From positions 1-33,355 of the forward strand of contig JABJOK010000103.1 of the NCBI GenBank assembly GCA_018664365.1: a stretch of 33,355 nt of DNA. Direction: 5' to 3'. The stretch comes from Candidatus Peregrinibacteria bacterium. GTDB lineage: Bacteria; Patescibacteriota; Gracilibacteria; UBA1369; LOWO2-01-FULL-3. Below, one piece after another: positions 1 to 19,999 of the stretch. The stretch's first letter is position 1. Each line of letters begins with the position of its first letter. The position numbers were made by a program, and so were the translations under genes. A model generated the notes under the pieces. It made no database searches and was not told where the DNA came from. It saw nothing but the letters and a program-made list of their open reading frames with translations.

Positions 1-3000
1 CCTCCTTTCGCACTACAGCATCCCCAACCAGCTCCGCCAGAACCAAGAGTTGAAATATTCGTAATATCAATATCTGAAATACCGCCAGCGTCTTCTTCAT
101 CATCCGTACCCCCATGTCCTCCATGTCCTCCTCCAGCACCACTAGCGTAGGTGCCATAGACACCCCCACCATCACCATATCCATCTTCATAACGCCCACC
201 ACCTTCATGTCCTCGTCCATCAACATCCACAGAACCATTCGCGGTAATATTTATATCTGTAGAGCTAACATTCACAACATGAGCCCCATTGTCTTCGGTG
301 TTCTCCCCGTGCGTTAACATCCCATAAGCATTTATATTCAAAGTAGCAATACTAAAGGCACTTGAAGAAGTATAATCATACAGTTCCAAAGTTCCCTTAA
401 TACTACCATTGGTTCCATTAAGAGTAAGAGTAGTAGCATTATTTAAAGTAGCAGTATCATAAAATTCCAATTCGGTATCATCAATTATCAAAGTTGCATT
501 GGGAGTAAGGACCCCTCCTGCCTCTATACTAAGAGTTCCTGTTCCATCCCCACTAAAGAAAGGGGCATTATCACTATCATCCAAAACTAATGTCTTCCCA
601 GAAGGAACAACGTATTTATTATCACCAACAATTTTAATCCTAGCAGCAGTGACAGAAGAAGGATACTGAGTTGAAGTACCCCCAGTATTAGAACCATTAT
701 CAACACATATATCGCCAGAATCCCCATCAGTATCTACTATATATATAGGACCAGCACCTCCATCAGCATAACCAGCTCCCCCCAAAGCACTGATACTGGA
801 ACAGCTTATATTTGCTGTCAAAGTAGTAGTGTACTCAACAGAAACAGCACCACCGCCACCAGCACCAGCTCCATGGCCAACACTAGCAAGTCCTCCATCA
901 GCACTAATTGAAGCAGTTGCATCACCTGTGATGGAATCAGCTACCAATTTCACTCCACCACCAGCTCCACCTCCTGCATAGTCAGTCCCAGCATCACCAT
1001 CTGCAGTAATAGTCCCATCAATATCTAAAGTCCCACTTGCAGTCAATATTACAAGCCCTCCGCCATCTCCACCATTCCCACTCAAAGCACTTCCACGACC
1101 TCCCCCACCAGATCCAAAAGTAGCAATGTTTGCAATATCAACATCAGCAGCAGTACCGGCATCACCATCTGTGTCATTTCCACCATCACCACCATGCCCA
1201 GCACCAGTTCCAGATGCATAGCCACCATAGACACCAGCAGCAGGCCCAAATCCATCTGTTGTCTGAATCTTACTTCCCTGATGACCACGTCCATCAACAT
1301 CTACTTCAGCGTCAGCATTAATATTAATAGTAGTTGCACTAACGTTAACAGCATGTTCACCATTCCCCTCAGTGTTCTCCCCATGCGTTAACATCGAATA
1401 AGCGTTCAAATTCAAAGTAGCAATACTGAATGCCAAAGATGATGTGAAATATCTCAAATCAAGATATCCCATCTCCCCAGCATCAGTTCCAGTAATGTTC
1501 AAAGTACTAACTCCACTTAGAGTTCCTGTCTGATGCATTTCCAAAATAGCATCCTGAATAGTCAAAGTTGCATTAGCATATAACGTACCTTCAGTAACAC
1601 GAATTATCCCAGTACCATCACCATTTTCGACAGGACTGTTGTCAGGGTCATTAAGAGTCAAGCTGCCTCCACTCGGGATTGTGTATTCAGCATTGTTTTG
1701 TAAGTCTATATTTTTCGCAGTGACACTAGCAGCCGCCTGAGTAGAGGTAGCACCATCTCTGGCTCCATTATCAGAATACAAAGAGGCAGAATCTCCACTA
1801 TCAGTATCATAGATAGCAACTATCCCTGCACCACCATCTTCAGCAGATCCTCCCTTAGCGCCACCGTAATGATCAATATCTGAAGACGCAATCGAATTAG
1901 ATGTAGTGAACTCTATATAAACTCCACCACCGCCTCCTCCTCCGGCTCCATAGCTACCACCATTACCTCCAATAACACTAAAATCATCAACAGCATCGGT
2001 ATTCGTAATTATGTCTGCAACCAGCTTAATACCGCCTCCAGCTCCACCCCCTCCAGTCTCTATCCCAGAAGTTCCATCTGCAGTGATAGTTCCACTGATA
2101 TCAATAGTTCCAGTAGCCTGCAAAATAACTAATCCGCCACCATCGCCACCAGCCAAACTACAGCAACCACCACCACCACCTCCAGAACCAAGAGTAGAGG
2201 GATCATAAATGCTCATATAACCAACTCCGCCAGCATCGCCCTCCACATCCATTCCTCCATTACCATGGTGCCCGCCACCACTACCATCCGCATAAGTTGC
2301 AAAAAATCCACCCCCAGTACCATTACCATCCTGAGAATGTCCCCCTCCTTCGTGTCCAAGTCCATCAACGTCCACAGCTCCACCATCTTCAATTGTTATA
2401 TTTGCAGCCGAGAAATCAACCTCATAGAGCTGAGAGTCTCCATCCACATAAGCATGATCCCCATGCGTCAAAGTTCCTCCACTCTCAACCGTCAAAGTGC
2501 CAGTGAGAGTTTGAGTATCATCATTGTTCTGAGTCAATGTCCCCCCACTAGCAATAGTAATATTATCAACTGCATTAATAGTATAATCTCCAATCGTCAC
2601 AGCATGACTTATACTTACGTCCTCTCCCGCCTGAGGAACCGTTCCCCCGCAATTGTCCCAGGTGCCAGCCGTATTCCAATCGCCCTCAGACCCAGAAGAG
2701 GTACAACTATCAGGAGCCAAAAAAGTACCATCATCACCGTGGTCATAATCAGAAATACCACCAGTAACCGTAGCCGAAGAAATACTATTAGAAGTAACAT
2801 ATCCGAGATAAATACATCCTCCTCCTCCTCCCCCCCAGTAAGACGTAGGATAACCAACAGCTTCACCGCCCACTGCAGTAAAACTTGATGGTGTACCAGC
2901 TATAGTATTAGCTGTAATTTTAACACCACCACCAGCACCACCACCAGAACTAGCACCACCCCACCCACCATCAGCCGTAATCTCACCATTAATAGTGGCT

Positions 3001-3779
3001 GTGCCTGACACCTCTATCATGACTATACCGCCACCGGCACCACCATTACCATGACCACCACCAGAACCCATTGTAGCTGGGTTCGTTGAACTACAATAAG
3101 CTATACCACCCAGAGAACCTGCCTGATTACCATTACCACCATTACCGCCATGACCACCACCACCAGCATTACCAATAACATATGTACCAGGGGCTGGCCC
3201 CTCACCCTTGTCATAACCCAAGTCATCAACATCAATAGTTCCTCCAGCATCAACCGTAAACGTCGCTACCGAGAAATCAACTTCATAAGCTTGCGTAGTG
3301 CTATTATTACCATGTTTCAAAGTCCCTCCATCTAGAATCCATAACTCCCCCCAAAGTGTTTGCTGGACATTATTCATCTGATACACGGTAGAAGCAGCAT
3401 CAAGCCGAAGATTTGTCCCTGTTCCAATATTTCCATATAAATATAGTCTCGCAGTATTCCCCATTAAGGCACCACCAATAGTCAAAGTATCAAAATCTGC
3501 AATCTGACCACCAGCCACTTGCACAGTATAACTCGTAGTAGGACTACCAATATAGACAGCATCCCATTGAGTAGGCACAACATCCCCTGACCAGTTGTTA
3601 GCACTGTTCCAAAGCCCATCACCCGCTCCACCATCCCACGTAATAAGAGCCGCATACGCCACAGGACTGGTCATAAGAACATACGGCCCCACACAAGCAA
3701 ATACGAGCGCTAAAACACCTCCAAGTAGAATTTTTTTTAAACCATTCATAGGTATGGCTAATTTCTCGAAATTTTTCAT
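1..3779 (-). CDS. Giant secreted glycine-rich modular repeat protein. Partial: the 3' end runs off the left window edge. At least 1259 codons.
   Basis: This ORF is absent from the supplied track because no stop codon lies inside the window. Hand translation of the reverse complement from ATG 3779 (second in-frame ATG at 3749) met no stop. I verified this codon by codon for 1-362, 1440-1559, 2220-2342 and 3300-3362. The N-terminus MKNFEKLAIPMNGLKKILLGGVLALVFACVGPYVLMTSPVAYA/AL is signal-peptide-like and parallels that of the neighbouring giant gene. The body repeats motifs such as L(T/K)HG(E/D/N)N, YEVDFS, VDVDG(R/L)GH.GG, GGGHGGNGG, GSGGGG and GGGAGGG(V/I)K. The plus-strand ORFs in this region are antisense shadows (GGN codons read as Pro/Thr/Ser). 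Confidence 0.8.
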   Translation of the reverse strand, partial: MKNFEKLAIPMNGLKKILLGGVLALVFACVGPYVLMTSPVAYAALITWDGGAGDGLWNSANNWSGDVVPTQWDAVYIGSPTTSYTVQVAGGQIADFDTLTIGGALMGNTARLYLYGNIGTGTNLRLDAASTVYQMNNVQQTLWGELWILDGGTLKHGNNSTTQAYEVDFSVATFTVDAGGTIDVDDLGYDKGEGPAPGTYVIGNAGGGGHGGNGGNGNQAGSLGGIAYCSSTNPATMGSGGGHGNGGAGGGIVMIEVSGTATINGEITADGGWGGASSGGGAGGGVKITANTIAGTPSSFTAVGGEAVGYPTSYWGGGGGGCIYLGYVTSNSISSATVTGGISDYDHGDDGTFLAPDSCTSSGSEGDWNTAGTWDNCGGTVPQAGEDVSISHAVTIGDYTINAVDNITIASGGTLTQNNDDTQTLTGTLTVESGGTLTHGDHAYVDGDSQLYEVDFSAANITIEDGGAVDVDGLGHEGGGHSQDGNGTGGGFFATYADGSGGGHHGNGGMDVEGDAGGVGYMSIYDPSTLGSGGGGGGCCSLAGGDGGGLVILQATGTIDISGTITADGTSGIETGGGGAGGGIKLVADIITNTDAVDDFSVIGGNGGSYGAGGGGGGGVYIEFTTSNSIASSDIDHYGGAKGGSAEDGGAGIVAIYDTDSGDSASLYSDNGARDGATSTQAAASVTAKNIDLQNNAEYTIPSGGSLTLNDPDNSPVENGDGTGIIRVTEGTLYANATLTIQDAILEMHQTGTLSGVSTLNITGTDAGEMGYLDLRYFTSSLAFSIATLNLNAYSMLTHGENTEGNGEHAVNVSATTININADAEVDVDGRGHQGSKIQTTDGFGPAAGVYGGYASGTGAGHGGDGGNDTDGDAGTAADVDIANIATFGSGGGGRGSALSGNGGDGGGLVILTASGTLDIDGTITADGDAGTDYAGGGAGGGVKLVADSITGDATASISADGGLASVGHGAGAGGGGAVSVEYTTTLTANISCSSISALGGAGYADGGAGPIYIVDTDGDSGDICVDNGSNTGGTSTQYPSSVTAARIKIVGDNKYVVPSGKTLVLDDSDNAPFFSGDGTGTLSIEAGGVLTPNATLIIDDTELEFYDTATLNNATTLTLNGTNGSIKGTLELYDYTSSSAFSIATLNINAYGMLTHGENTEDNGAHVVNVSSTDINITANGSVDVDGRGHEGGGRYEDGYGDGGGVYGTYASGAGGGHGGHGGTDDEEDAGGISDIDITNISTLGSGGAGWGCCSAKG
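311..3320 (-). repeat. Four coding modules of the glycine-rich protein, roughly 283-360 aa each
   Basis: The landmark string catgcgttaacat / catgcgtcaaag / catgtttcaaag (encoding L-T/K-H-G on the minus strand) recurs at ~311, ~1385, ~2465 and ~3311. The offsets are 1074, 1080 and 849 nt, and all are multiples of 3. Flanking nucleotide similarity is visible, for example 301-385 versus 1374-1460. Confidence 0.7.
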
Positions 3780-3826
3780 TTTAAAAATACCAGAAAAGCG
3801 CACAAAAGAACATTCTGCAGCAAGCT
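3722..3826 (-). repeat. Copy A of a ~104-nt conserved 5' cassette (upstream region plus first ~19 codons) shared by the two giant genes
   Basis: An ungapped alignment by eye with 9717-9820 shows about 9 mismatches in ~104 nt. Similarity stops abruptly on both sides. Confidence 0.85.
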
Positions 3827-3849
3827 TTTAGACAATAACTAATATGAAT

Positions 3850-6800
3850 TTATTTCCTTATTTTTACCGTCCTCGCACTACCCACAACACTCTCTCTTTC
3901 ATCCATCACATAGGCAGTGAGGTCATGCTCCCCTACTGCTAACCTTTTTGGAATATCAATATTGAACTCCCCCTGCGAAGCGTCAGAGATCACTACAGAA
4001 GAAATAACAAGGCTCTTGAACGATACATAAACAGTAGAGCCAGGAGCAGCACGTCCTTTGATAGTATTCGAACCTGGAGTGCGGATTGCAATAAACTCTT
4101 CCTTGTCAAAATCATCAACTATTAGCTCAACATTCTCAAGCAACATAGCAATAAAGACTAACAATTTATCATTCTCAGAAAACTTCAAATACTCAATATT
4201 AGTAGAGCTATCATTCTTAACTTCAAACACATCAATAGACTCAACTTCTTCATTTTCATCATCAGTAACTACAATAAAGTATTCACCATCCTCCAAACCT
4301 TGCCATGAAAGAATCTCGCCCTTTCCATCATCACCTATAACGGTTTCTCCCAAGAAAGTTTTAGATGAGCTGTCATTAATTGGAGCAACATAAATACTAA
4401 CCTTATCATCTGGCTCTCCAGCAAGCCTGAACACCGGAGTATTTCCATAAGAGACAGCATCCAAGTTTGTAATCTTTGCAGAATATTTTAAATATACAGT
4501 TTCTTCATCGTTCTCGTCCTCTGGAAGCTCTTCTTCAAAAACTTCATCAGCAACTAAAGGGTCAGTTCCAAAGAATATCTCGTCAGCATTTGTTCGACCA
4601 TCTTCATCGGGATCAGGATTAAACAACGGAAGTCCATGAGAAATCTGCCACATATCATTGATGGTGTCTTCGTCAGAAGGCTTGCAGCGTTTTTCTGTGC
4701 ATCCATCTAAATTTGTATTTTCATTAATGATAATAACGGTTTTTCCTGCCTCATCAGCAGCAGTTTTCTTTTCCTCATACTTCTCGTCAGTTTGAATGAT
4801 AATCTCAACCTCTTCGATGTCGCTAATCTCTAAAATTTCATCACCTTGCAAGACTTTAATATGCTTCTTACCTTTAGTAACCTGTTCTAAAAATTCTTTG
4901 CTAAGACCAGTTTTGAAATGTTTTTCGAGATATTTTATCTCCAGTTTTTCAGATACATCCTCGTATTTTTGTTCAGCCAATGCCATTCTTGTATCTTGAA
5001 GAACCTCGAGATATTTTAGGAAAAACTTCACCTTTTCCTCCTGGGGCATATCTACAGAAAAGTCAGGATTGTTTTTTTCAAGCTCTCTATCAAGATATTC
5101 ATCCATAGCACTCACAATTTCTTCTTGAAACTCTTCCTCAGGTTCTTCTTCAGCATCTTCGACAATCTCTGGATCAATAATAACTGGCTCTCCATATGGA
5201 AGGTCGTTTATTTGATCCAAGGCATTTTGAAGAATATCTTCTTCATTTTCTGAGACCTCTTCTTCATCAACATCAACAACGTCGTCAAGATCTTCCTCTT
5301 CTTCTTCCTCATTTTCGTCATCGTCATCGTCTACTGCCGGAGGAGTAACTGGAGGACCTATAGATCCACCAGAAGAAATAATTGCCGGCGGCGCATCAGC
5401 AGTCACAGCACCAATAGTAGCAGAGTCGGTGGTGTTGCCAGAGGCATCTCTAACAGTAATTTTAAAGATATGTGGACTACTAGATGTAAGGCCAGTTGAT
5501 GTCCAGGTAGTAACTGCTTGCCATCCAGAATCAGTCCCTTTTGTTAAGTTTGTAAATTTATAAGGAGTTACATGCATTCCCGAATCTCCATCAGTTGGAG
5601 TTCCATCAATAGAAAGTCCAACGCTAGAAGTAGTAGTTCCTGTTGAAGACAATATAACGGCAGAAATATCAGGATCAGTAGTGTCTAATTGAAAAGCAAC
5701 ACTTCCGCTATTTGCAATAACCTCAGAAGAGGTTAAGCCGTGGTTTTCCACCGCCTGAACTTTCCAGTAATAATCTCCAGCAGCCAAGGTTTGAGATTCC
5801 GCTCCTATAGTATAGGCGCCACCAGTATCGGCAGCCTGCCCTACGGTAAAGCCCTGTGTAGTCCCAGAAACGATGTCATTAGCTCCATAAGTATAGTGAA
5901 CAACAGGGCTAGAAAAATCATCGTCATCATCAACATAAATAATATATCCCAAGCTGTCTCCATCTGGATCAGTAAGAGTGAAATTCAGAGTAGGAGTTGT
6001 ATCCCCAGTCCATTCACCCATGGTTAAAGCCGCCTCAGTCAAATCTTCCTGAGTTGCAGTTTGCGAAAGAGATGGTGGATTTGCAGGTTGCTGAGAAAAT
6101 TTAAAAGTATATTTTGTCTCCCATCCACTAATGTTACCAGCGGTGTCTCTTGTATTGATACGAAGATAATAAGGAGTGTTTGGAAGGGGAGCAGCAGCGG
6201 CATCATATGCAGGGGAAGAAACAGTTGCAGTAGGCGTAGTTGATGCAATCTCAGTTCCCCAATAAACATCATATTCATCTACTCCAGAACCACCAACATC
6301 AGTTCCAGAGGTCCAGACAAAATCCGGATCAGCAATTGTTGCCCAAGTATCGTCGAGCGACCCATTACTGTCAGTTACAGTTCCCGCATTTATAGGATCA
6401 ACAGAGTCGTAATAAAAGTTCACAGAACCAGTTAAACCATTGTTGGATGCATTATCTGTAGCAAAAACTTCAAACAGCTTTGTTCCATCAGCATCCGAGC
6501 TTAAGGTTACGTCCAAAGTGGTGTCATCCGGTGTAGTAGTTGAAGCAGTCCCCGCATCGGTTTCATAAGTATAATTTGCAATTCCAGAGCCTCCAACATC
6601 TCCTGGATCACTCCAAGAAAACTCGAATGAATTAGAATTAGTCCAAGAAGTTGGTGAAGAAGAAGGAGCCGGAGTATTTGGAGCGTCTTCATCAAACTTA
6701 TGTGTAAAAATAGTAGCCCAACAATCAGAATCAGCAGGGCGATCTACATTGGTGTTTGTACAAGTATCGCTTCCCCCATCAGGGTCAGCCCAGTTACCTG

Positions 6801-9774
6801 CAAGATCTTGAGTGATTACTCTTAAATATCTTTCTCCAGATTCTGCAAGTGAGCTAGGGTCGACAGCATCGGTCAAAATAGAGTCAGTAGTAACACCAGT
6901 AGCGCTTGTATCAAAGTACCAATAATATTGATAGATTCCATTTGTATCAAATTCATTTGTAAATGAAGTGAAGTCTGGATCATCATTGGTATTACTCCAG
7001 GTATCGTCAACTGCCCCTTGTCCGTCAATTGCTCCATCGGGATTAGTTGGTGCAGTTGTGTCGTAAATAATATTATCAGTAATGACTGAGGATTCATTCC
7101 CGAGCGCATCCTTAAAAATTGCATAAACAGTTTTGGTTCCCTCTGAAGAATCTCCTCCATAGGCAACATCGCTGAAGTCCCAAGAAGCCTTTGTAGCACC
7201 ATAAGCTTCATAAGCACTATATGTAATTCCATCATTACTGAACTTCATTTCAGAAGCTCCAGTAATAGCAGAAAGGTCTACGTCCTCAGTCAGGCTAGAT
7301 GTGAAAGTAGTTCCCCCGGCAGCATCTGTAGTCGATTGGATTGCAGTAACGCCAGATGGAGCCTGGTTATCCACAGTAAATACTAAAGAGGTATCGTCGG
7401 CAGTTACGGTTCCATCGTCAACAGTTACCATAATTTGTACAGTTTCAGGCTCAGCTGTAATAGGAACGTAGTCAGGAGTTGCGTTCTGACTATCCCAGAC
7501 AATGGTCAAAGTGTTCTCTCCACTTGAAGTATCTACCGCACTAAATTGTCCAGCAGTTTCATCAAAATCACCATTAGTAATTGTAGGAGTAGCTCCATAA
7601 GAAGGAGTCACAGAATCAAGATACGTTCTATTCCAGCTAACTCCTGCATCAGTGGTGTAATCCACCTTTACCTCAAGAGGGTTATCATTAGCATCGGCAA
7701 CACCAACTGTGAAAGTTACTTTTCCAAGACCGTCGGTAGTTTGTGAAACAAGTTCAGGTGTTGTGTCGATAGTAGGGGCATCGTTTGTAGAATAAGTAAT
7801 AGTGTCAGTAATAGCGGATGATTCATTCCCAAAATCATCTTTAAAAATCGCATACACAGTTTTTGTCCCTTCGGTAGAATCGCCTCCATAGGTAGCATTA
7901 GACATATCCCAAGAAGACTTAGTAACAGCATAAGCCTCGTAGGCAGTATATGTAATTCCATCATTACTAAACTTCATCTCAGTAGCTCCAGTTATAGCAG
8001 AAAGATCGATGTCTTCGATTAAGCTAGAGGTTGAAGTATTAGTGCCATCAGTACTAGATTGAATTACAAAAGTTCCATAAGGCATCTGATTATTGACAGT
8101 GAAAGTTGAAGAGCTATCACTAGCAGTATCAGTTCCATCGTCTGCAGTTACCTTAACCTGAACAGTGCTAAGATCAGCACCTATATAAGTATAGCTTGGA
8201 GTAGAGTACTTACTGTCCCATGTAACGGTTATGTCTTTCGTTCCTCCTGCGGTATCTACGCTAAATTGTCCGGCGGTAGAATCGTGGGCACCATTGGTTA
8301 TTGTAAGAGGACCTTCTGCAGAAGGTGTAGCAGAATCAATATAGGCTCTGTACCAATTAGTTCCATTAGTTGTATATTCTATTGTTATCTCAGAAGTATC
8401 GGCCACATCTGTCTCTTCAACAGAAAAATCAAAAGTTATAGTCCCAAGTCCATCTGTAGATTGATGTGATGGAGTAGCCGGAATAACATTTGTTACGACA
8501 GGGGCGGCGTTTGTCACTTCTGCATAATTGAATATATATGCTGCTCCAGCATCTATCCCGTTGTCATCATCGAAGGCTGCTCCTATTAGTGCATAATTAT
8601 TACTATTTATGGCAACTCCACATCCAAAGTTATCTTCAGCTTCGCCATCACTTGCTATTAGCGTGCTTCCTAACTGACTCCATGTGGATCCAGATCTTTG
8701 ATATATATACGCCGCTCCATTGTAGGCTGGATTGAGTGTATCTGCCTCACCAATTATTGCATATGAACCGTTTAGATCTACACTAGTTCCATAAGTACCT
8801 GTCCCTGGTGTTATTGTTTGCTGATGACTCCAGGTATCTCCTAATCTATAATACACGTATACGTTAGGCCCATAATGTGTGGCAATAAAATAATCTCCTG
8901 ATACTGCTATGGATGAGGTTCCCATGCCCATTTCTGACGATAATGCTGGTTCTAGCTTTTGCTGTTGTGACCAGGTCTCACCACTTCTAGTGAATACATA
9001 TACAGAGCCTGCGTTTACTCCTTTTGTATTATCTTCGCCTGGAGCACCAGCGACCACTGTATCTCCATCTATATCTACTGTATATCCGACATAAGCGTTT
9101 GCTTCATCGTCATCGGCAGCTAGTGGATACCAGGTCGCCATGACACCAGTTTGCACTGTCCAGCTTTCTAGGCCTGTATCTCTTTTGTATATCTCTATTC
9201 CACCTTGGCCCAGACGTTGGGGGATGGTGGGGCTGTAATTAGGCCCTCCCACCACTGCATAATCTCCATCTATGCCTACGCTCCACCCGAAGTCACCTGC
9301 ATGGGGAGACGTAATGTATTCCGTTATACTCCATGTATCCAATCCAGTGTCTCTTTTGTATATATATGATCTATTGTCCGATGGGGCTCCGATGATCATA
9401 TAGTCACCACTTATATCCACACTTCTTCCAAAGCTGCTACTCGAAGGGCCCGTAAGCATATCTACCTGAGCCCAGGTAGCCCCTGATCTTTTAAATACAT
9501 AGGCCTTGTCTTCGTCTTCTGCCCCAACGACCGCATATGTTCCAGTGCTATCTACGGTTACAGATTCTCCATTAGTGCCTCCCCAGTAGTTACTGAAGTA
9601 TTCTCCTGCAGCGCCATCGTCGGGTGTGATTTTTTGCTGTTGACTCCAATCGGAAGCAGCATAGGCCACAAACCCCACAAAGCCCACGCAAACAAAAAAG
9701 AGCGATACAAACAGTACAAGTAGAATTTTTTTTAAATCATTCATAAGTATGGCAAATTTCTCAAAATTTTTCAT
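3850..9774 (-). CDS. Giant secreted multidomain protein: signal peptide, FG-GAP-type beta-propeller repeats, tandem Ig/FN3-like modules, acidic linker, TSP3-like Ca-binding motif, C-terminal Ig-like domains
   Basis: The track ORF is 3850..9798. Conserved in-frame ATGs lie at 9774 (MKNFEKF) and 9744 (MNDLKKILLVLFVSLFFVCVGFVGFVAYA/AS, a canonical signal peptide with an AxA site). The repeated unit FG.SV.ISGDY.IIGAP....AYI(F/Y).R.G..W.Q occurs about 6-7 times (ORF aa ~85-425), matching FG-GAP-like repeats. D.AGN and GGSG(I/V).Y.Y modules follow. The motif NPDPDEDGRTNADEIFFGTDP maps to nt 4546-4620. Confidence 0.85.
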   Translation of the reverse strand: MKNFEKFAILMNDLKKILLVLFVSLFFVCVGFVGFVAYAASDWSQQQKITPDDGAAGEYFSNYWGGTNGESVTVDSTGTYAVVGAEDEDKAYVFKRSGATWAQVDMLTGPSSSSFGRSVDISGDYMIIGAPSDNRSYIYKRDTGLDTWSITEYITSPHAGDFGWSVGIDGDYAVVGGPNYSPTIPQRLGQGGIEIYKRDTGLESWTVQTGVMATWYPLAADDDEANAYVGYTVDIDGDTVVAGAPGEDNTKGVNAGSVYVFTRSGETWSQQQKLEPALSSEMGMGTSSIAVSGDYFIATHYGPNVYVYYRLGDTWSHQQTITPGTGTYGTSVDLNGSYAIIGEADTLNPAYNGAAYIYQRSGSTWSQLGSTLIASDGEAEDNFGCGVAINSNNYALIGAAFDDDNGIDAGAAYIFNYAEVTNAAPVVTNVIPATPSHQSTDGLGTITFDFSVEETDVADTSEITIEYTTNGTNWYRAYIDSATPSAEGPLTITNGAHDSTAGQFSVDTAGGTKDITVTWDSKYSTPSYTYIGADLSTVQVKVTADDGTDTASDSSSTFTVNNQMPYGTFVIQSSTDGTNTSTSSLIEDIDLSAITGATEMKFSNDGITYTAYEAYAVTKSSWDMSNATYGGDSTEGTKTVYAIFKDDFGNESSAITDTITYSTNDAPTIDTTPELVSQTTDGLGKVTFTVGVADANDNPLEVKVDYTTDAGVSWNRTYLDSVTPSYGATPTITNGDFDETAGQFSAVDTSSGENTLTIVWDSQNATPDYVPITAEPETVQIMVTVDDGTVTADDTSLVFTVDNQAPSGVTAIQSTTDAAGGTTFTSSLTEDVDLSAITGASEMKFSNDGITYSAYEAYGATKASWDFSDVAYGGDSSEGTKTVYAIFKDALGNESSVITDNIIYDTTAPTNPDGAIDGQGAVDDTWSNTNDDPDFTSFTNEFDTNGIYQYYWYFDTSATGVTTDSILTDAVDPSSLAESGERYLRVITQDLAGNWADPDGGSDTCTNTNVDRPADSDCWATIFTHKFDEDAPNTPAPSSSPTSWTNSNSFEFSWSDPGDVGGSGIANYTYETDAGTASTTTPDDTTLDVTLSSDADGTKLFEVFATDNASNNGLTGSVNFYYDSVDPINAGTVTDSNGSLDDTWATIADPDFVWTSGTDVGGSGVDEYDVYWGTEIASTTPTATVSSPAYDAAAAPLPNTPYYLRINTRDTAGNISGWETKYTFKFSQQPANPPSLSQTATQEDLTEAALTMGEWTGDTTPTLNFTLTDPDGDSLGYIIYVDDDDDFSSPVVHYTYGANDIVSGTTQGFTVGQAADTGGAYTIGAESQTLAAGDYYWKVQAVENHGLTSSEVIANSGSVAFQLDTTDPDISAVILSSTGTTTSSVGLSIDGTPTDGDSGMHVTPYKFTNLTKGTDSGWQAVTTWTSTGLTSSSPHIFKITVRDASGNTTDSATIGAVTADAPPAIISSGGSIGPPVTPPAVDDDDDENEEEEEEDLDDVVDVDEEEVSENEEDILQNALDQINDLPYGEPVIIDPEIVEDAEEEPEEEFQEEIVSAMDEYLDRELEKNNPDFSVDMPQEEKVKFFLKYLEVLQDTRMALAEQKYEDVSEKLEIKYLEKHFKTGLSKEFLEQVTKGKKHIKVLQGDEILEISDIEEVEIIIQTDEKYEEKKTAADEAGKTVIIINENTNLDGCTEKRCKPSDEDTINDMWQISHGLPLFNPDPDEDGRTNADEIFFGTDPLVADEVFEEELPEDENDEETVYLKYSAKITNLDAVSYGNTPVFRLAGEPDDKVSIYVAPINDSSSKTFLGETVIGDDGKGEILSWQGLEDGEYFIVVTDDENEEVESIDVFEVKNDSSTNIEYLKFSENDKLLVFIAMLLENVELIVDDFDKEEFIAIRTPGSNTIKGRAAPGSTVYVSFKSLVISSVVISDASQGEFNIDIPKRLAVGEHDLTAYVMDERESVVGSARTVKIRK
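7054..8511 (-). repeat. In-frame tandem duplication of a ~242-aa (726-nt) two-domain unit inside the giant protein
   Basis: ORF aa 430-671 (NAAPVVTNV...ITYSTN) and 672-915 (DAPTIDTT...IIYDTT) align along their whole length. The nucleotide strings at ~7231 and ~7957 are near-identical at an offset of 726 nt. Confidence 0.85.
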
Positions 9775-9820
9775 TTTAAAAATAGCAGAAAAGCACAAAA
9801 AAGAACATTCCGCAGCAAGA
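9717..9820 (-). repeat. Copy B of the conserved 5' cassette shared by the two giant genes
   Basis: See copy A (3722-3826). Confidence 0.85.
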
Positions 9821-9897
9821 TTCCAGGAAGCCGATAAACAAGAGTTTAATGAAAAAAGAAGAAGGCACTTTCAAGGCATTTCTGATAGACTCTTCGC

Positions 9898-11079
9898 ATG
9901 AACTTAAGGAAATTGAGCCTAAAATCAAACAATCTCAAGCTGATGTGCTTGGAAAACCTCACAAGTGGTTTGATTTTTTTCCTGCCTGTTATGGCGGTTT
10001 ATTACAAAAGTATAGTGGGGTCTGTGGCTAACGTGGGAATTGTTATTGCAACTTTCTCACTGTCCTTATTAATATTCGAAATTCCAAGCGGAGCTATTGC
10101 GGATCTTTTTGGAAGGAAGACCACCATTATACTGGGGTATATATTATGGATAATAGCCTTGGTGGTATTATATTTTGCAGATTCAATGTTTGGACTAATA
10201 TCCTTTTCAGTTCTTGATGGAATGGCCTCAAGCCTTTTTAGTGGAGCAGATAGTGCTCTGATATACGACACTCTTAAAGAAGAAGGAAAGGAGCGCCACT
10301 ACAAAAAAGCAATCGGCCTATACCACTCAATGTGGCCACTGGGTGCCGCTGCCGGAGCTGTTATTGGAGGATATATCGCAGCAATTGATTTAAAACTAGC
10401 AGTTCTATTGAGCATCCCCACGGCATTCATGGCATTCCTTTTCGTTTTACCCATTAAGGAGCCAAAGTTTCACAAAGAGGAGCACAAGAACGTGCTCAGG
10501 CAAATGAAGAAATCAATAAAAATAGCAATCTCAAGCAGGCAGATCCTTATATTAATAGGAGCAGGATTTATCCTCTGGGGGCTGGGAGAGGCTTCACACT
10601 GGATCGATTCGATTTACTACACGTTCAAAGGAATCGAAATAAAACACTTCGGATACATTACAGGAGCGGCCTTTGGTCTATCTTCATTAGGGCATTTTCT
10701 ATCACACAAGTTTGCGAAAAAAGTTGGTGACAAAAATGCGATTCTATTAACTGTAGGAATTTGGATCGTACTCTTCTTTTCATCAACTTTAATGGCAGGC
10801 TGGCCAGCAGTTATTCTTTTCGTGATACCAGCACTCCTATTTGGGCTTCGAGCTCCAGTTGAAGAACACATTGCCAATGCAGAGGTAAGCTCAAGCCAAC
10901 GTGCAACAGTGCTCTCTATCGTCAACTTCAGCAGGCAGTCCTCAATGGCAATTTTCACACCCCTAGTCGGATACTTCGCAGATCTTTATGATTTAGACGT
11001 AGCTTTCAGGGCTTCTTCAATAATAATGATCGTGGCATTTGTGATCTTTTTTGGGCTGAAGTCTCCTAAGAAGGTTTAG
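9898..11079 (+). CDS. MFS-family transporter
   Basis: The 393-aa protein is polytopic and hydrophobic, with about 12 hydrophobic segments. It has an MFS loop 2-3 signature-like sequence, EIPSGAIADLFGRKTTIILG. An alternative start exists at M16 (9943). Confidence 0.75.
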   Translation: MNLRKLSLKSNNLKLMCLENLTSGLIFFLPVMAVYYKSIVGSVANVGIVIATFSLSLLIFEIPSGAIADLFGRKTTIILGYILWIIALVVLYFADSMFGLISFSVLDGMASSLFSGADSALIYDTLKEEGKERHYKKAIGLYHSMWPLGAAAGAVIGGYIAAIDLKLAVLLSIPTAFMAFLFVLPIKEPKFHKEEHKNVLRQMKKSIKIAISSRQILILIGAGFILWGLGEASHWIDSIYYTFKGIEIKHFGYITGAAFGLSSLGHFLSHKFAKKVGDKNAILLTVGIWIVLFFSSTLMAGWPAVILFVIPALLFGLRAPVEEHIANAEVSSSQRATVLSIVNFSRQSSMAIFTPLVGYFADLYDLDVAFRASSIIMIVAFVIFFGLKSPKKV

Positions 11080-11249: not shown

Positions 11250-11951
11250 CTAGATCGGCTTGGCCATGCAGTACCACTTACCGTCTACCTGGACGAGGTT
11301 GTAATCCTCGCTCGGGCAGGACAGTGTGGGGCTGCACTTTATGGCATGTCCGACGTGAATCAAGTACCCCTTGCAGACGGGGGGCTCGCTCACAGGCTCA
11401 CTGTGTCGGGGGGCATTCCAGGCTCGCCGATAGTCCTCTCTCGGATCGTGTTGGGGCTCGGGATCCTCAAGGGACTCCTCCTCACCGAAACACATAACCG
11501 GGGTTACCTTCACCTCTCCGCAGACGCGGAAAACGTCCATCCGCGGGTCTTCCGTACGATGGTTGACCCACACGCCCGTCTGAATCGACGAACGACGAAG
11601 GCTGAGGCTATGGCGAGAGCTAGTCGACGAGCGGCCGTTCACTTTTGAGCTGCTCTTGTAGAGGAATTCTGCCACATCACTGGGGCATCCTTCCATAAGA
11701 GACGCTCGAAGGTCCAGGTCGATATCGGTCCACACCAGCGAATCGAAGCTCTCCTGAGAGACCTTGCGACAGCTGACGACGCGGTTATCAACAAAACCGA
11801 TCATGGAACCACGGGCAGTCGCCTGCCAGTAGGCCTCGATGGTTGTGTCGACTTCCGTAGAGCCGAAATATCCCGTCGAAGTGCTCGCGCACCCCGAAAT
11901 GATGAGTGCGGTTGCGACCACACCCAGAGGCATAAAACCCTTTCTCTGCAT
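11250..11951 (-). CDS. Lipoprotein of unknown function, encoded in a GC-rich islet
   Basis: The N-terminus MQRKGFMPLGVVATALIISG/CAS has a positive n-region, a hydrophobic core and a lipobox (L/I)-(S)-G-C. AAGGAG lies 8 nt upstream of the ATG. Third codon positions are strongly G/C-biased, as expected for a real gene from a GC-rich background. The C-terminal part is Cys-rich. I recognise no family. Confidence 0.7.
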   Translation of the reverse strand: MQRKGFMPLGVVATALIISGCASTSTGYFGSTEVDTTIEAYWQATARGSMIGFVDNRVVSCRKVSQESFDSLVWTDIDLDLRASLMEGCPSDVAEFLYKSSSKVNGRSSTSSRHSLSLRRSSIQTGVWVNHRTEDPRMDVFRVCGEVKVTPVMCFGEEESLEDPEPQHDPREDYRRAWNAPRHSEPVSEPPVCKGYLIHVGHAIKCSPTLSCPSEDYNLVQVDGKWYCMAKPI

Positions 11952-12147: not shown

Positions 12148-12224
12148 TGGCGGAACGGACGGGACTCGAACCCGCGACCTCCTGCGTGACAGGCAGGCGT
12201 TCTAACCAGCTGAACTACCGCTCC
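12148..12224 (-). tRNA. tRNA-Asp (anticodon GUC), 77 nt, with encoded CCA
   Basis: The reverse complement is GGAGCGGTAGTTCAGCTGGTTAGAACGCCTGCCTGTCACGCAGGAGGTCGCGGGTTCGAGTCCCGTCCGTTCCGCCA. It folds as a cloverleaf. The acceptor stem is GGAGCGG/CCGTTCC, the D stem GTTC/GAAC and the anticodon stem CCTGC/GCAGG. The anticodon loop is CTGTCAC, and the T arm is GCGGG-TTCGAGT-CCCGT. Confidence 0.95.
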
Positions 12225-13473: not shown

Positions 13474-13751
13474 AAAAAGCAGCTAACCGCTACGGGATAA
13501 GCACTGAAATGAACGCTGCAAAGGTGTGTCATGATTTTAGAGAAATAATCCCCGAACTTTTTAAGAATATAGAAAGCCCGGAAGAATACATCTCTCCATC
13601 AAGCTTCAAGGATCAAACATTAACCATCAATGTAGAAAACTCTGCATGGGGACAGGAAGTAATAATGCGTAAAGAAAAAATCATCGATCAAATGAACAAA
13701 AAGGCTGGCAAAGAAATCATTAAAAATCTCCGTACTCAATTGAAGAAATAG
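13446..13751 (+). CDS. DUF721 / DciA-like small protein
   Basis: The 101-aa protein contains ISPSSFKDQTLTINVENSAWGQEVIMRKEKIIDQMNKKAGKEIIKNLRTQL. This follows the DUF721 pattern (p..l..g.L.v.v.ss.W..el......I...lN...G...I..irf). It overlaps the upstream GT gene by 28 nt. Confidence 0.5.
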   Translation: MFEPFQQFVKKAANRYGISTEMNAAKVCHDFREIIPELFKNIESPEEYISPSSFKDQTLTINVENSAWGQEVIMRKEKIIDQMNKKAGKEIIKNLRTQLKK

Positions 13752-13790
13752 CCATTTTCTGCTATAATACAAGGAAATAAAAAGTAAAAA

Positions 13791-15016: not shown

Positions 15017-15604
15017 TTGTTAAAGATTAGATTAAGCCGAGCAGGAAAAAAAGCTCAACCAAGTTATAAAGTTGTAGTGCAAGAGCACTCACAAGCCGTT
15101 AAAGGTAAGTTTATTGAACAACTTGGGATTTTCAGACCAACTGATGATCCAAAAGTTTTCACTGTAGACGTAGATCGTGTTAAATACTGGATATCTGTCG
15201 GAGCACAGCCTTCAGACAGAGTTGCAGTTCTTCTTAAAAATGAAGGATTAGATGGTATGGAAAAATACATCGGTCCAAGAAACAAGCAGAAAAAGAAAAA
15301 GAAGGAAGAAGAGGAGGCGGCGCCAGCTGCGGAAGCAGCACCTGCTGAAGCTCCAAAGGCTGAAGAAAAAACAGCCGAAGAGCCTAAAGCAGAGGAAAAG
15401 CCTGCTGAAGAACCAAAGGCAGAAGAAGCTCCAGCCGAAGAGCCTAAAGCAGAGGAAAAACCTGCTGAAGAACCAAAGGCAGAAGAAGCTCCAGCCGAAG
15501 AGCCTAAAGCAGAGGAAAAATCTGCTGAAGAACCTAAAGCTGAAGAAAAGCCTGCCGAGGAAGCACCTGCTGAAGAGACTAAAGAAGAGGAAAAGTCAGA
15601 GTAG
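15017..15604 (+). CDS. rpsP: 30S ribosomal protein S16 with a ~105-aa Lys/Glu/Ala/Pro-rich C-terminal repeat extension
   Basis: The start codon is TTG. The N-terminal ~85 aa (MLKIRLSRAGKKAQPSYKVVVQE...YWISVGAQPSDRV) is canonical S16. The tail consists of (AEEPKAEEKPAEEPKAEEAP)n. Confidence 0.9.
   Translation: MLKIRLSRAGKKAQPSYKVVVQEHSQAVKGKFIEQLGIFRPTDDPKVFTVDVDRVKYWISVGAQPSDRVAVLLKNEGLDGMEKYIGPRNKQKKKKKEEEEAAPAAEAAPAEAPKAEEKTAEEPKAEEKPAEEPKAEEAPAEEPKAEEKPAEEPKAEEAPAEEPKAEEKSAEEPKAEEKPAEEAPAEETKEEEKSE
15377..15556 (+). repeat. Three tandem 60-nt coding repeats in the rpsP tail
   Basis: 15377-15436 and 15437-15496 differ at one base. 15497-15556 is a diverged third copy. The flanking sequence is degenerate versions of the same unit. 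Confidence 0.85.
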
Positions 15605-16957: not shown

Positions 16958-17069
16958 TTCTTTTCTTTATTTTTATTTTTGGATATCTCCAAATTATACC
17001 TTAAAAAAGACCAAAAGTCGAGGAGCATACTCTTGACGCCACCCTCAAGTATTTTATATCTTATCCGTT

Positions 17070-18010: not shown

Positions 18011-18038
18011 TTGACAAAGGGGAAAAAGGTGTTAGAAT
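18011..18038 (+). promoter_or_regulatory. Near-consensus sigma70 promoter with extended -10 (TTGACA-N16-TGtTAGAAT)
   Basis: The -35 TTGACA is at 18011-18016. TG is at 18030-18031 and the -10 TAGAAT at 18033-18038. The promoter lies ~30 nt upstream of the 18069 ATG. Confidence 0.5.
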
Positions 18039-19936: not shown

Positions 19937-19999
19937 ACTTCACCTTGACAATATGTCAAGGGCGCGGTAATAATTTAGGTCCTTATAATAATAAGTATT

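Follow-up and report, generated by a model that had tools for sequence, protein, structure and literature searches.

The window analysed here, a 33,355-nt stretch (contig JABJOK010000103.1) from a Candidatus Peregrinibacteria bacterium, carries two giant surface-protein genes on its minus strand. Gene A (1..3779) is represented by the first 1259 codons of a Gly-rich repeat protein of 2470/2478 aa whose remainder lies outside the window, and gene B (3850..9774) encodes a 1974-aa FG-GAP/Ig-like repeat surface protein. Giant surface proteins are thought to mediate the host attachment of CPR-type bacteria. The full-length gene A protein (P0125, 2478 aa) was taken from a 55.5-kb JGI contig, on which B (1974 aa), A (2478 aa) and a third gene, C (1865 aa), follow one another in tandem on one strand. 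A sequence-only reading of the window had described A and B as unrelated, a view overturned by the full-length proteins, which have in common an internal module (A1735-1885 / B662-810, 73% aa) and their C-terminal ~620 aa (A1858-2478 / B1347-1974, 60% aa); since the window cuts A after 1259 codons, the two genes look unrelated inside the window only. B and C match at 67% aa across 818 residues and have the C-terminal module in common, all three proteins are alignable across their last ~200 aa, and A and B carry different N-terminal passenger domains. These alignments mark A, B and C as a three-gene tandem family of giant mosaic surface proteins in Candidatus Peregrinibacteria, a trio carried by this population with its ends in common and its middles shuffled. 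No orthologues of gene B were found, other homologues matching the FG-GAP region only, at ~30% identity; only 3 distant proteins came back from a search with the C-terminal module, and a scan of JGI metagenome contigs with that module found no relatives. The assemblies of this population are identical or 1 nt apart, so that they carry no polymorphism signal.

A near-identical block at the starts of two paralogues

The starts of genes A and B carry a repeated high-identity block, with copy A at 3722..3826 and copy B at 9717..9821, both on the minus strand and thus direct repeats of one another. In ungapped register (3722 with 9717 to 3826 with 9821) the copies share 96/105 identities with 9 mismatches and 0 gaps, and blastn returns 103 nt at 92.2% (E 1.7e-36). 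Each copy comprises 47 nt 5' of the first ATG together with codons 1-19 (MKNFEK[L/F]AI[P/L]MN[G/D]LKKILL) of its gene. The sequence-only reading had described a near-identical, ungapped block with about nine mismatches running from upstream of the first ATG to about codon 19, and both its identity and its span are borne out by alignment. A 28-nt core pattern of the block has exactly two matches in the window, and 0/100 shuffles contain it. Right after the second ATG (ATG2), within codons L-K-K-I, lies an A8 homopolymer (3731..3738, minus strand; partner 9726-9733), and the 33 kb contain just 6 runs as long as this, 2 of them in the block copies. A repeat search for terminal inverted repeats or MITE-like structure in the block came back empty, with only a 6-7-nt imperfect match visible by eye.

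The flanks had also been taken as unrelated, which holds upstream, where 8/23 positions are identical between A and B, and fails downstream, where the next 35 nt are 66% identical, the CVG and VAYAA motifs are kept and the signal peptide is homologous (whole-leader BLASTP 26/44, E 3e-10). As homology continues through the remainder of the signal peptide, the repeat is best described as a homologous 5' module of ~140-180 nt with a high-identity core, the core being 91.4% identical between A and B and the adjacent h-region 65.7% (p=6e-4). In gene A the h- and c-regions of the signal peptide (...VAYA|A) occupy 3648..3721 (minus strand) and, with 66% nucleotide identity in their first 35 nt, dS 0.58 and dN 0.47, are the older, lower-identity portion of the common 5' module; the gene B counterpart (9655..9716, minus strand) is 4 codons shorter. 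Giant repeat-rich genes break assemblies, and the contigs of the second MAG (GCA_018673315.1) do end inside A and B, yet an artefact in which the metagenome assembler collapsed a repeat or made a chimeric join is extremely unlikely: the copies differ at 9 positions and in their flanks, the NCBI MAG contig and the separately deposited JGI 55.5-kb contig give the same gene B protein and gene order, and L006, a contig of the second MAG, independently confirms copy B with an identical version.

Across all collections searched, the block was found on A and B only. An exhaustive HMMER search with the leader against 1.84 billion representative proteins retrieved gene A itself only, in a design that misses proteins behind a 50%-cluster representative (gene B probably sits behind a leaderless one such as gene C), and no candidates came from a word-indexed protein search that used the 44-aa alignment of the leaders, a weak negative given that the window's own proteins were also missed. 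A scan of GTDB species genomes at the DNA level found no true copy, its 3 matches (in Algoriphagus, Saprospiraceae and Clostridiales) being chance hits that are 30-37% identical outside the pattern; since that collection contains neither MAG of this species, the scan is uninformative on other copies in this genome. A leader peptide-pattern scan of JGI metagenome contigs found no relatives, two scans of viral contigs were empty, and no third copy lies in the window, to which the DNA-level search of the bacterium's own genome was confined. The sequence-only reading had proposed a portable expression/secretion cassette, one reused before many giant adhesin-like genes of the lineage, and a block carried by two genes with different passenger domains would suit such a device. 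The empty JGI, GTDB and viral scans and the single HMMER match nevertheless make it very unlikely, as do the 5' ends of two relatives, the adjoining gene C, co-oriented downstream of A, and a distant Gracilibacteria family member, both of which lack the block and have other, ordinary 5' ends. The restriction of the block to A and B and an identity that derives from paralogy are largely what had been named beforehand as speaking against a portable cassette.

Start codons, promoter-like elements and leaders

The block contains two in-frame ATG start candidates, the first ATG (ATG1) at 3777..3779 of gene A (minus strand; partner 9772-9774) and ATG2 at 3747..3749 (minus strand; partner 9742-9744), and existing annotations are inconsistent between GTG, ATG1 and ATG2, depending on the pipeline. 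In the JGI gene calls B starts at ATG1 and A at an in-frame GTG (3801-3803), and the NCBI annotation begins both proteins at ATG2 (MNGLKK... / MNDLKK...). Upstream of these codons, an extended -10-like element, TGGTATTTT, can be read at 3784..3792 (minus strand), at distances of 4 nt from ATG1 and 34 nt from ATG2, with its partner TGCTATTTT at 9779-9787 in copy B, and the -10-like TAAAAT that had been reported as overlapping the first ATG (tttTAAAATG) is present as stated at 3778-3783 (minus strand). A promoter function for these elements is suggested by their position: the -10-like hexamers of the block lie 28-34 nt before ATG2, and among the window's strong promoters the gap between the end of the -10 element and the start codon is 22-35 nt. 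A consensus sigma-70 scan (-35 and -10 at 16-18 nt spacing) found no promoter in the gene A upstream region and, for gene B, only a non-conserved site within the ATG1-ATG2 interval; the scanner does not score the TGn-extended -10-like class (TATTTT; TAAAAT), and the element at 3784..3792 falls below its threshold. The earlier choice of ATG2 as the true start fits this local promoter geometry, the lack of a Shine-Dalgarno sequence for genes in the window and the NCBI start, and we infer it from these features; the A/T content upstream varies too widely among well-supported genes to discriminate between the start codons. If ATG2 is the start, the MKNFEKLAIP extension may be untranslated. No terminator was found between B and A, and A may be co-transcribed with B.

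By inspection rather than formal prediction, the A and B leaders look like Sec-type (type I) signal peptides, with a positively charged n-region, a hydrophobic h-region and a VAYA|A cleavage site (MN(G/D)LKK followed by ILL...VG...). Inspection found no lipobox in either leader, the lone Cys (FACVG / FVCVG) lying in the middle of the h-region outside an L-[AS]-[GA]-C context.

A cis-regulatory RNA element was considered and rejected: Rfam at its gathering threshold gave no match in the block and only a tRNA-Asp in the window, folding of the block yielded no structure more stable than those of shuffles (z -1.07 to +0.81), and no fold is common to the copies, whose minimum-free-energy structures differ. 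With two copies only, no Rfam match and no significant or common fold, the block shows no sign of being a dedicated element. On the opposite strand, an ATG-initiated reading frame (MANFSKFFILKI...) is present in both copies and is called by annotation pipelines at copy B (50 aa by JGI, 60 aa on L006), with, by our own reading of the sequences, ~3/7 internal differences silent in that frame. That a conserved small protein encoded there is what the block preserves is nonetheless highly improbable, given that the frames do not stop at the same point (25 vs 50 aa), 4 differences alter the peptide, no start signals are evident and such frames are common opposite A/T-rich coding sequence.

Divergence of the block and its likely origin

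Silent and non-coding divergence between A and B is ~10-fold lower in the block than in the other modules they have in common (dS ~0.10 vs 0.85-1.5 by Nei-Gojobori). Codons 1-19 of the block give dS 0.105 and dN 0.067 with 17/19 third positions identical, and the upstream part is identical at 42/47 positions (p=1.6e-7 against third positions of the gene bodies), in line with the conservation at non-coding and synonymous positions that had been noticed in the letters alone. The internal module, by comparison, has a dS of 0.85 and the C-terminal module a dS of 1.49 with 317/616 third positions identical; across the other A-B modules third-position identity is 51-60%. Within the core, identity does not differ between upstream and coding parts (p=0.73), and the coding changes comprise 1 synonymous and 3 replacement differences, an even spread over non-coding, synonymous and replacement sites that is as would be expected of drift following a copy. 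The B-A-C paralogues contain, within old, mosaic, module-sharing genes, a short stretch of far younger apparent age, the family being conserved at its ends and variable in its middle.

These patterns point to a recent gene conversion or segmental copy, the alternative that the sequence-only reading had itself listed, which would have homogenised the start regions of tandem paralogues A and B; we give this reading a probability of roughly 0.55, on small counts (9 differences in total between two sequences). In such a scenario, a ~180-nt promoter-proximal and signal-peptide module would have descended from old common ancestry and diverged about as far as the other common modules, and the first ~105 nt of one gene's module would later have been replaced by the other gene's sequence in a short conversion or segmental-copy event, which would leave non-coding, synonymous and replacement positions all ~90% identical. 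Functionally, the block would be each gene's own start region, in which the last ~47 nt ahead of the gene are followed by the alternative start codons and the n-region of the signal peptide. Its -10-like element (TGnTATTTT / TAAAAT) probably starts transcription ~25-30 nt upstream of ATG2, and the product would begin with MN(G/D)LKK, continue through a hydrophobic core to VAYA|A and then enter Sec export. Several features fit a conversion less comfortably. No other 100-nt window in the common modules exceeds 85% identity and no further conversion patches were found there, so that the family gives no independent sign of ongoing conversion; homology stops within 3-5 nt of the tract's 5' end, an awkward fit for a classical conversion, since that requires flanking homology; and the single young tract falls exactly on the regulatory and initiation region, with its 3' edge at a functional boundary, the end of the n-region, as constraint would also predict.

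Nucleotide-level purifying selection is a tentative alternative, possible but not favoured here, in which a cis-regulatory unit (promoter/operator plus SD-less initiation region) co-ordinating A and B would have stayed near-constant since duplication. The block is the sole stretch above 85% identity in the family, it coincides with the upstream region, start codons and n-region down to a sharp edge at the n/h boundary, and it contains conserved -10-like hexamers together with an A/T-rich start context of the kind typical for the organism. Constraint would nevertheless have to act on ~85-90% of 105 consecutive positions, third codon positions included; the differences are evenly spread and 3/4 of the coding changes alter the protein, neither an RNA structure nor an Rfam family accompanies the block, paralogue C and the Gracilibacteria relative do without it, and no collection searched holds a further copy. 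With two sequences from one population and identical assemblies, conversion and selection are inseparable by phylogeny.

Direct repeats could also serve as a substrate for programmed variation, either by recombining to delete or swap B, as in the vsp/vpma or sap families, or through slipped-strand on/off switching at A8. A conserved 5' UTR and signal peptide in a tandem surface-protein family recall Mycoplasma vpma/vsp (PMC2268961), and both block copies contain A8, a run of a kind that is rare in the window. We regard this as improbable all the same. With A, B and C all co-oriented, deletion is all that recombination could bring about; neither the scanned neighbours nor the Pfam lists around B-A-C on the inner part of the 55.5-kb contig include a recombinase or integrase domain; and no variant arrangement was seen, the B-A-C order standing on the JGI contig and other assemblies being fragments consistent with it. 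The A8 length of copy B is unchanged between the window and L006, and so is the gene B protein on the JGI contig, a comparison among consensus assemblies that hide minority lengths; A8 is borderline for a contingency tract and is a trivial outcome of encoding Leu-Lys-Lys-Ile where the genome is A/T-rich. The locus shows one young tract and lacks both an archive of silent donors and an expression site, and nothing in it points to antigenic variation driven by a host.

A lineage-specific nucleotide-level element appears rather unlikely, whether as a promoter/operator plus SD-independent leader that co-regulates two giant adhesins (with the 10 codons MKNFEK(L/F)AI(P/L) perhaps as an in-frame leader or dual start) or as direct repeats that let the population delete and re-acquire the 6-kb gene B; if true, no such device for regulating or varying giant surface proteins would have been described before in CPR-related bacteria. 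Selection on the block at the nucleotide level would matter more than its alternatives, as CPR-type promoters, leaders and SD-independent initiation signals are essentially uncharacterised. Recent copy-correction, the reading we prefer, would have little import beyond annotation; it would show that short homogenised tracts occur in these reduced genomes.

Comparison with known surface-protein systems

A copy-corrected 5' block of surface-protein paralogues is an ordinary kind of feature, known from the Mycoplasma vsp/vpma families. In the vpma genes of Mycoplasma agalactiae and the vsp genes of M. bovis, which are clustered genes for variable surface lipoproteins, the 5' UTR and signal-peptide region are highly conserved and the remainder shows little or modular similarity (PMC2268961). 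The B-A-C locus resembles these clusters in conserving this region within a clustered family, here in 2/3 genes only (A and B, not C), and differs from them in several respects. In vpma/vsp, a recombinase encoded next to the genes, Xer1, has its site within the 5' block and by inversion moves a single promoter, whereas no recombinase was found at B-A-C; vpma/vsp genes lie in both orientations, whereas B, A and C are all on one strand; the vpma/vsp products are lipoproteins with an AAKC lipobox, whereas the A and B leaders end in a type-I-like VAYA|A; and the A, B and C proteins are ~50 times larger.

A second point of reference is the sap S-layer family of Campylobacter fetus, in which large surface-protein genes carry a conserved block reaching from upstream into the N-terminal coding region. 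There the block spans several hundred bp, a single promoter is inverted between oppositely oriented homologues in a RecA-dependent manner, and the proteins are not known to have a cleaved signal peptide. The A/B block likewise straddles the gene start, reaching from upstream DNA into the N-terminal codons, without the several-hundred-bp length, RecA-type promoter inversion, oppositely oriented homologues or uncleaved N-terminus of sap. The YSIRK/GxxS motifs of Gram-positive surface proteins and the ESPR of autotransporters are signal-peptide extensions conserved at the protein level in hundreds of proteins from many species. MKNFEKLAIP is similarly an unusual N-terminal extension on very large surface proteins whose signal peptide is otherwise ordinary, but it has no relative among 1.84 billion representative proteins and is conserved at the DNA rather than the protein level.

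Extent of the repeat and its genomic setting

The repeat shared by the giant surface-protein genes A and B is real and statistically secure. In gene orientation its two copies, at 3722-3826 and 9717-9821 on the minus strand, are identical at 96 of 105 positions with no gaps, which bears out the coordinates and counts of the sequence-only reading. Alignment of copy A to copy B with blastn gave 92.2% identity over 103 nt (E 1.7e-36), a repeat search lengthened the match to 140 nt (86% identity, family D5), and a 28-nt core pattern had two exact occurrences in the window and none in 100 shuffles. Each copy of this block is made up of the 47 nt that precede the first ATG (ATG1) and of codons 1-19, MKNFEK[L/F]AI[P/L]MN[G/D]LKKILL, with a second ATG (ATG2) in frame at codon 11. 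Immediately 5' of the block the genes agree at the chance level (8/23); 3' of it identity is 66% across the next 35 nt, and homology can be recognised throughout the remaining signal peptide, with CVG and VAYAA kept (BLASTP 26/44, E 3e-10). An assembly error behind the repeat is unlikely: there are 9 differences between the copies, and a pair of independently deposited records are concordant with each other and with a copy-B contig from a second MAG (L006).

Both genes are large minus-strand ORFs, gene A beginning at the ATG at 3779 and continuing past the window's left edge (MBT4917541.1, partial) and gene B spanning 3850-9774 (MBT4917542.1). The window corresponds to one entire NCBI contig (33,355 bp) from a Candidatus Peregrinibacteria MAG, its sequence is also contained in a 55.5-kb JGI metagenome contig, and the neighbourhood of the block is one of housekeeping genes (MFS transporter, GT4, DciA, S16, FtsA/FtsZ, RF, PDF, MurD and RNase J). 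A 233-aa gene at 11250-11951 (-), adjoining tRNA-Asp (12148-12224), has 57.7% GC against 40.7% in the window, a lipobox-like N-terminus (…ALIISGC) and no Pfam match, and may encode a horizontally acquired lipoprotein. The ribosomal protein S16 gene (15017-15604, +) carries a long acidic C-terminal tail of AEEPKAEEKP units from a 30-nt tandem repeat (15299-15591); another assembly of the same population (L001:693-1220) has two fewer units, giving 175 versus 195 aa, and the copy number of the tail is therefore variable.

A mosaic family of tandem paralogues

The sequence-only reading took the two genes to be unrelated, an impression that arose because the window shows only the part of A without a counterpart in B. 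Contigs L007-L009, which come from the second MAG and a further two metagenomes, provide DNA for the 3' portion of A, for its junction with C and for gene C itself. Together with them the locus spans window 1-9774 (-) plus L007:1-9146; in the JGI gene list B (1974 aa) is followed by A with 2478 aa and C with 1865 aa (1865-1867 aa across the sources), all giant genes in tandem on one strand. Full-length A matches B in an internal module (A1735-1885/B662-810, 73% aa identity) and in the C-terminal part (A1858-2478/B1347-1974, 60%), while B and C are 67% identical in aa sequence across 818 residues and also have the C-terminal region in common. A C-terminal module of ~200 aa is alignable across all three; over its final ~70 residues it resembles the structure 7dm0 (E 1.8e-5), an Ig-like domain from a surface protein associated with biofilms. 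A and B are thus tandem mosaic paralogues, and the block is the start region common to both. The 5' end of gene C, MHYIESICKFFKRASFYLIIVSLL..., is unrelated, with no similarity to the block at the DNA level.

Internal Ig-like modules are common to the family and the N-terminal passengers differ, with FG-GAP in B and C and Gly-rich repeats in A. Within gene B, a 246-nt direct repeat (7064-7309 versus 7793-8038, -; 79% identity) appears to be a duplicated Ig-like module (TDGLG…VTF…) with relatives in A and C. The C-terminal module also has a distant copy on a Gracilibacteria MAG contig (L010), in a protein whose signal peptide is ordinary and whose gene has a TATAAT promoter of its own. This relative (L010:5634-10670) is listed as two proteins of 1452 and 222 aa, and its table 11 translation mismatches the query; the lineage likely reads UGA as Gly (code 25), and the gene caller therefore probably split one giant gene.

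Within the collections searched, the block is unique to genes A and B. There is no third copy in the window; exhaustive HMMER of a profile of the leader (the signal-peptide N-terminus of A and B) against 1.84 billion representative proteins returned gene A itself only, a word-indexed protein search with the leader gave no match, a peptide-pattern scan of JGI metagenome contigs gave 600 pattern matches and no relatives, and two viral scans gave no matches to the block. Three DNA matches among GTDB species representatives, in unrelated phyla, were judged chance because they are 30-37% identical outside the pattern. As the GTDB collection contains neither MAG of this species and scanning of the MAG as DNA covered this contig, extra copies in the rest of this genome are excluded at the protein level only, provided that none is masked by a 50%-cluster representative. 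The striking framing of the repeat as a portable expression and secretion cassette falls, since the genes are paralogues and the block is confined to them in the collections searched.

Start codons and initiation signals

Genes A and B each have three candidate in-frame starts (GTG/TTG at -24, ATG1 and ATG2), which in A lie at 3801-3803, 3777-3779 and 3747-3749, with partners in B at +5995. JGI uses ATG1 for B and the in-frame GTG at 3803 for A, whereas NCBI uses ATG2 for both, so that the deposited N-termini differ by 10-18 residues. Well-supported window genes lack a Shine-Dalgarno and carry near-consensus TTGACA-N16-18-TATAAT promoters (for example 13740-13768, 18011-18038, 19945-19974 and 16993-17021) whose -10 stops 22-35 nt short of the start codon; their leaders are A/T-rich, often with TTTAAAAT. 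This pattern helps start-site annotation in the lineage. The block contains an extended -10-like TGsTATTTT (compare cTGcTATAAT 5' of a 385-aa gene), 4 nt before ATG1 and 34 nt before ATG2, and a TAAAAT 0 and 28 nt before them. If the promoter lies inside the block, ATG2 would be favoured as the start because these distances of 34 and 28 nt match the local geometry, and the n-region would then be a canonical MN(G/D)LKK.

A consensus promoter scan found none 5' of gene A and, for gene B, only one non-conserved site between ATG1 and ATG2; no terminator-like site was found between B and A, and A may be transcribed together with B. In the window Rfam matched only tRNA-Asp, and nothing in the block; neither copy folds more stably than shuffles with or without flanks (z -1.07 to +0.81), and the minimum-energy folds differ between copies. 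An antisense ORF (MANFSKFFILKI…) at 3754-3828 (+, 25 aa) in copy A and 9749-9901 (+, 50 aa) in copy B has differing end points and is probably spurious; copy B is the only one where annotation pipelines called a gene.

Divergence of the block and comparison with known systems

Nei-Gojobori estimates by region set the block apart from the remainder of the paralogues. Between A and B, dS and dN are 1.49 and 0.27 in the C-terminal module (third positions 51% identical), 0.85 and 0.165 in the internal module (60%) and 0.58 and 0.47 in the rest of the signal peptide (12/21), against 0.105 and 0.067 in block codons 1-19 (17/19), with 42/47 identical upstream. Upstream identity exceeds that of body third positions (p = 1.6e-7), as core identity does that of the neighbouring h-region (p = 6e-4); non-coding and coding parts of the block are equally diverged (p = 0.73), and its four coding differences, one synonymous and three replacement, approximate the neutral expectation. 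Because the block is ~10x "younger" than the rest and its site classes have changed alike, recent homogenisation of the 5' end is the best-supported mechanism, at a probability of roughly 55%; a short gene-conversion or segmental-copy event would have overwritten the 5' end of one gene with that of the other. The main rival, nucleotide-level purifying selection on the promoter and initiation region, is considerably less probable. The tract does coincide with that region, homology stops almost exactly at its 5' edge, and no other 100-nt window of the family exceeds 85% identity, but such constraint would have to act at nearly all 105 consecutive nucleotides, which is less economical given that neither structure nor a further copy was found and paralogue C lacks the block.

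The closest known architecture is that of the Mycoplasma vpma/vsp loci, in which clustered, otherwise dissimilar genes carry conserved 5' UTR and signal-peptide regions (PMC2268961). Programmed variation in that manner lacks its defining features here: unlike vpma/vsp, the A/B locus has no adjacent recombinase (no recombinase domain occurs in the neighbour genes scanned), opposite orientations, single movable promoter or lipobox. Both copies carry an A8 run 3' of ATG2, a kind of run seldom met in the window, but it is equal in length across the consensus assemblies compared and follows trivially from Leu-Lys-Lys-Ile codons. We found no prior description of such blocks in this lineage in the literature, and the significance of this one would grow if read-level or cross-species data revealed constraint or rearrangement. 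Conserved 5' UTR and signal-peptide blocks, and concerted evolution, are known from surface-protein gene families (PMC2268961, PMC4534519), and the A/B block is a further instance of this kind of feature.
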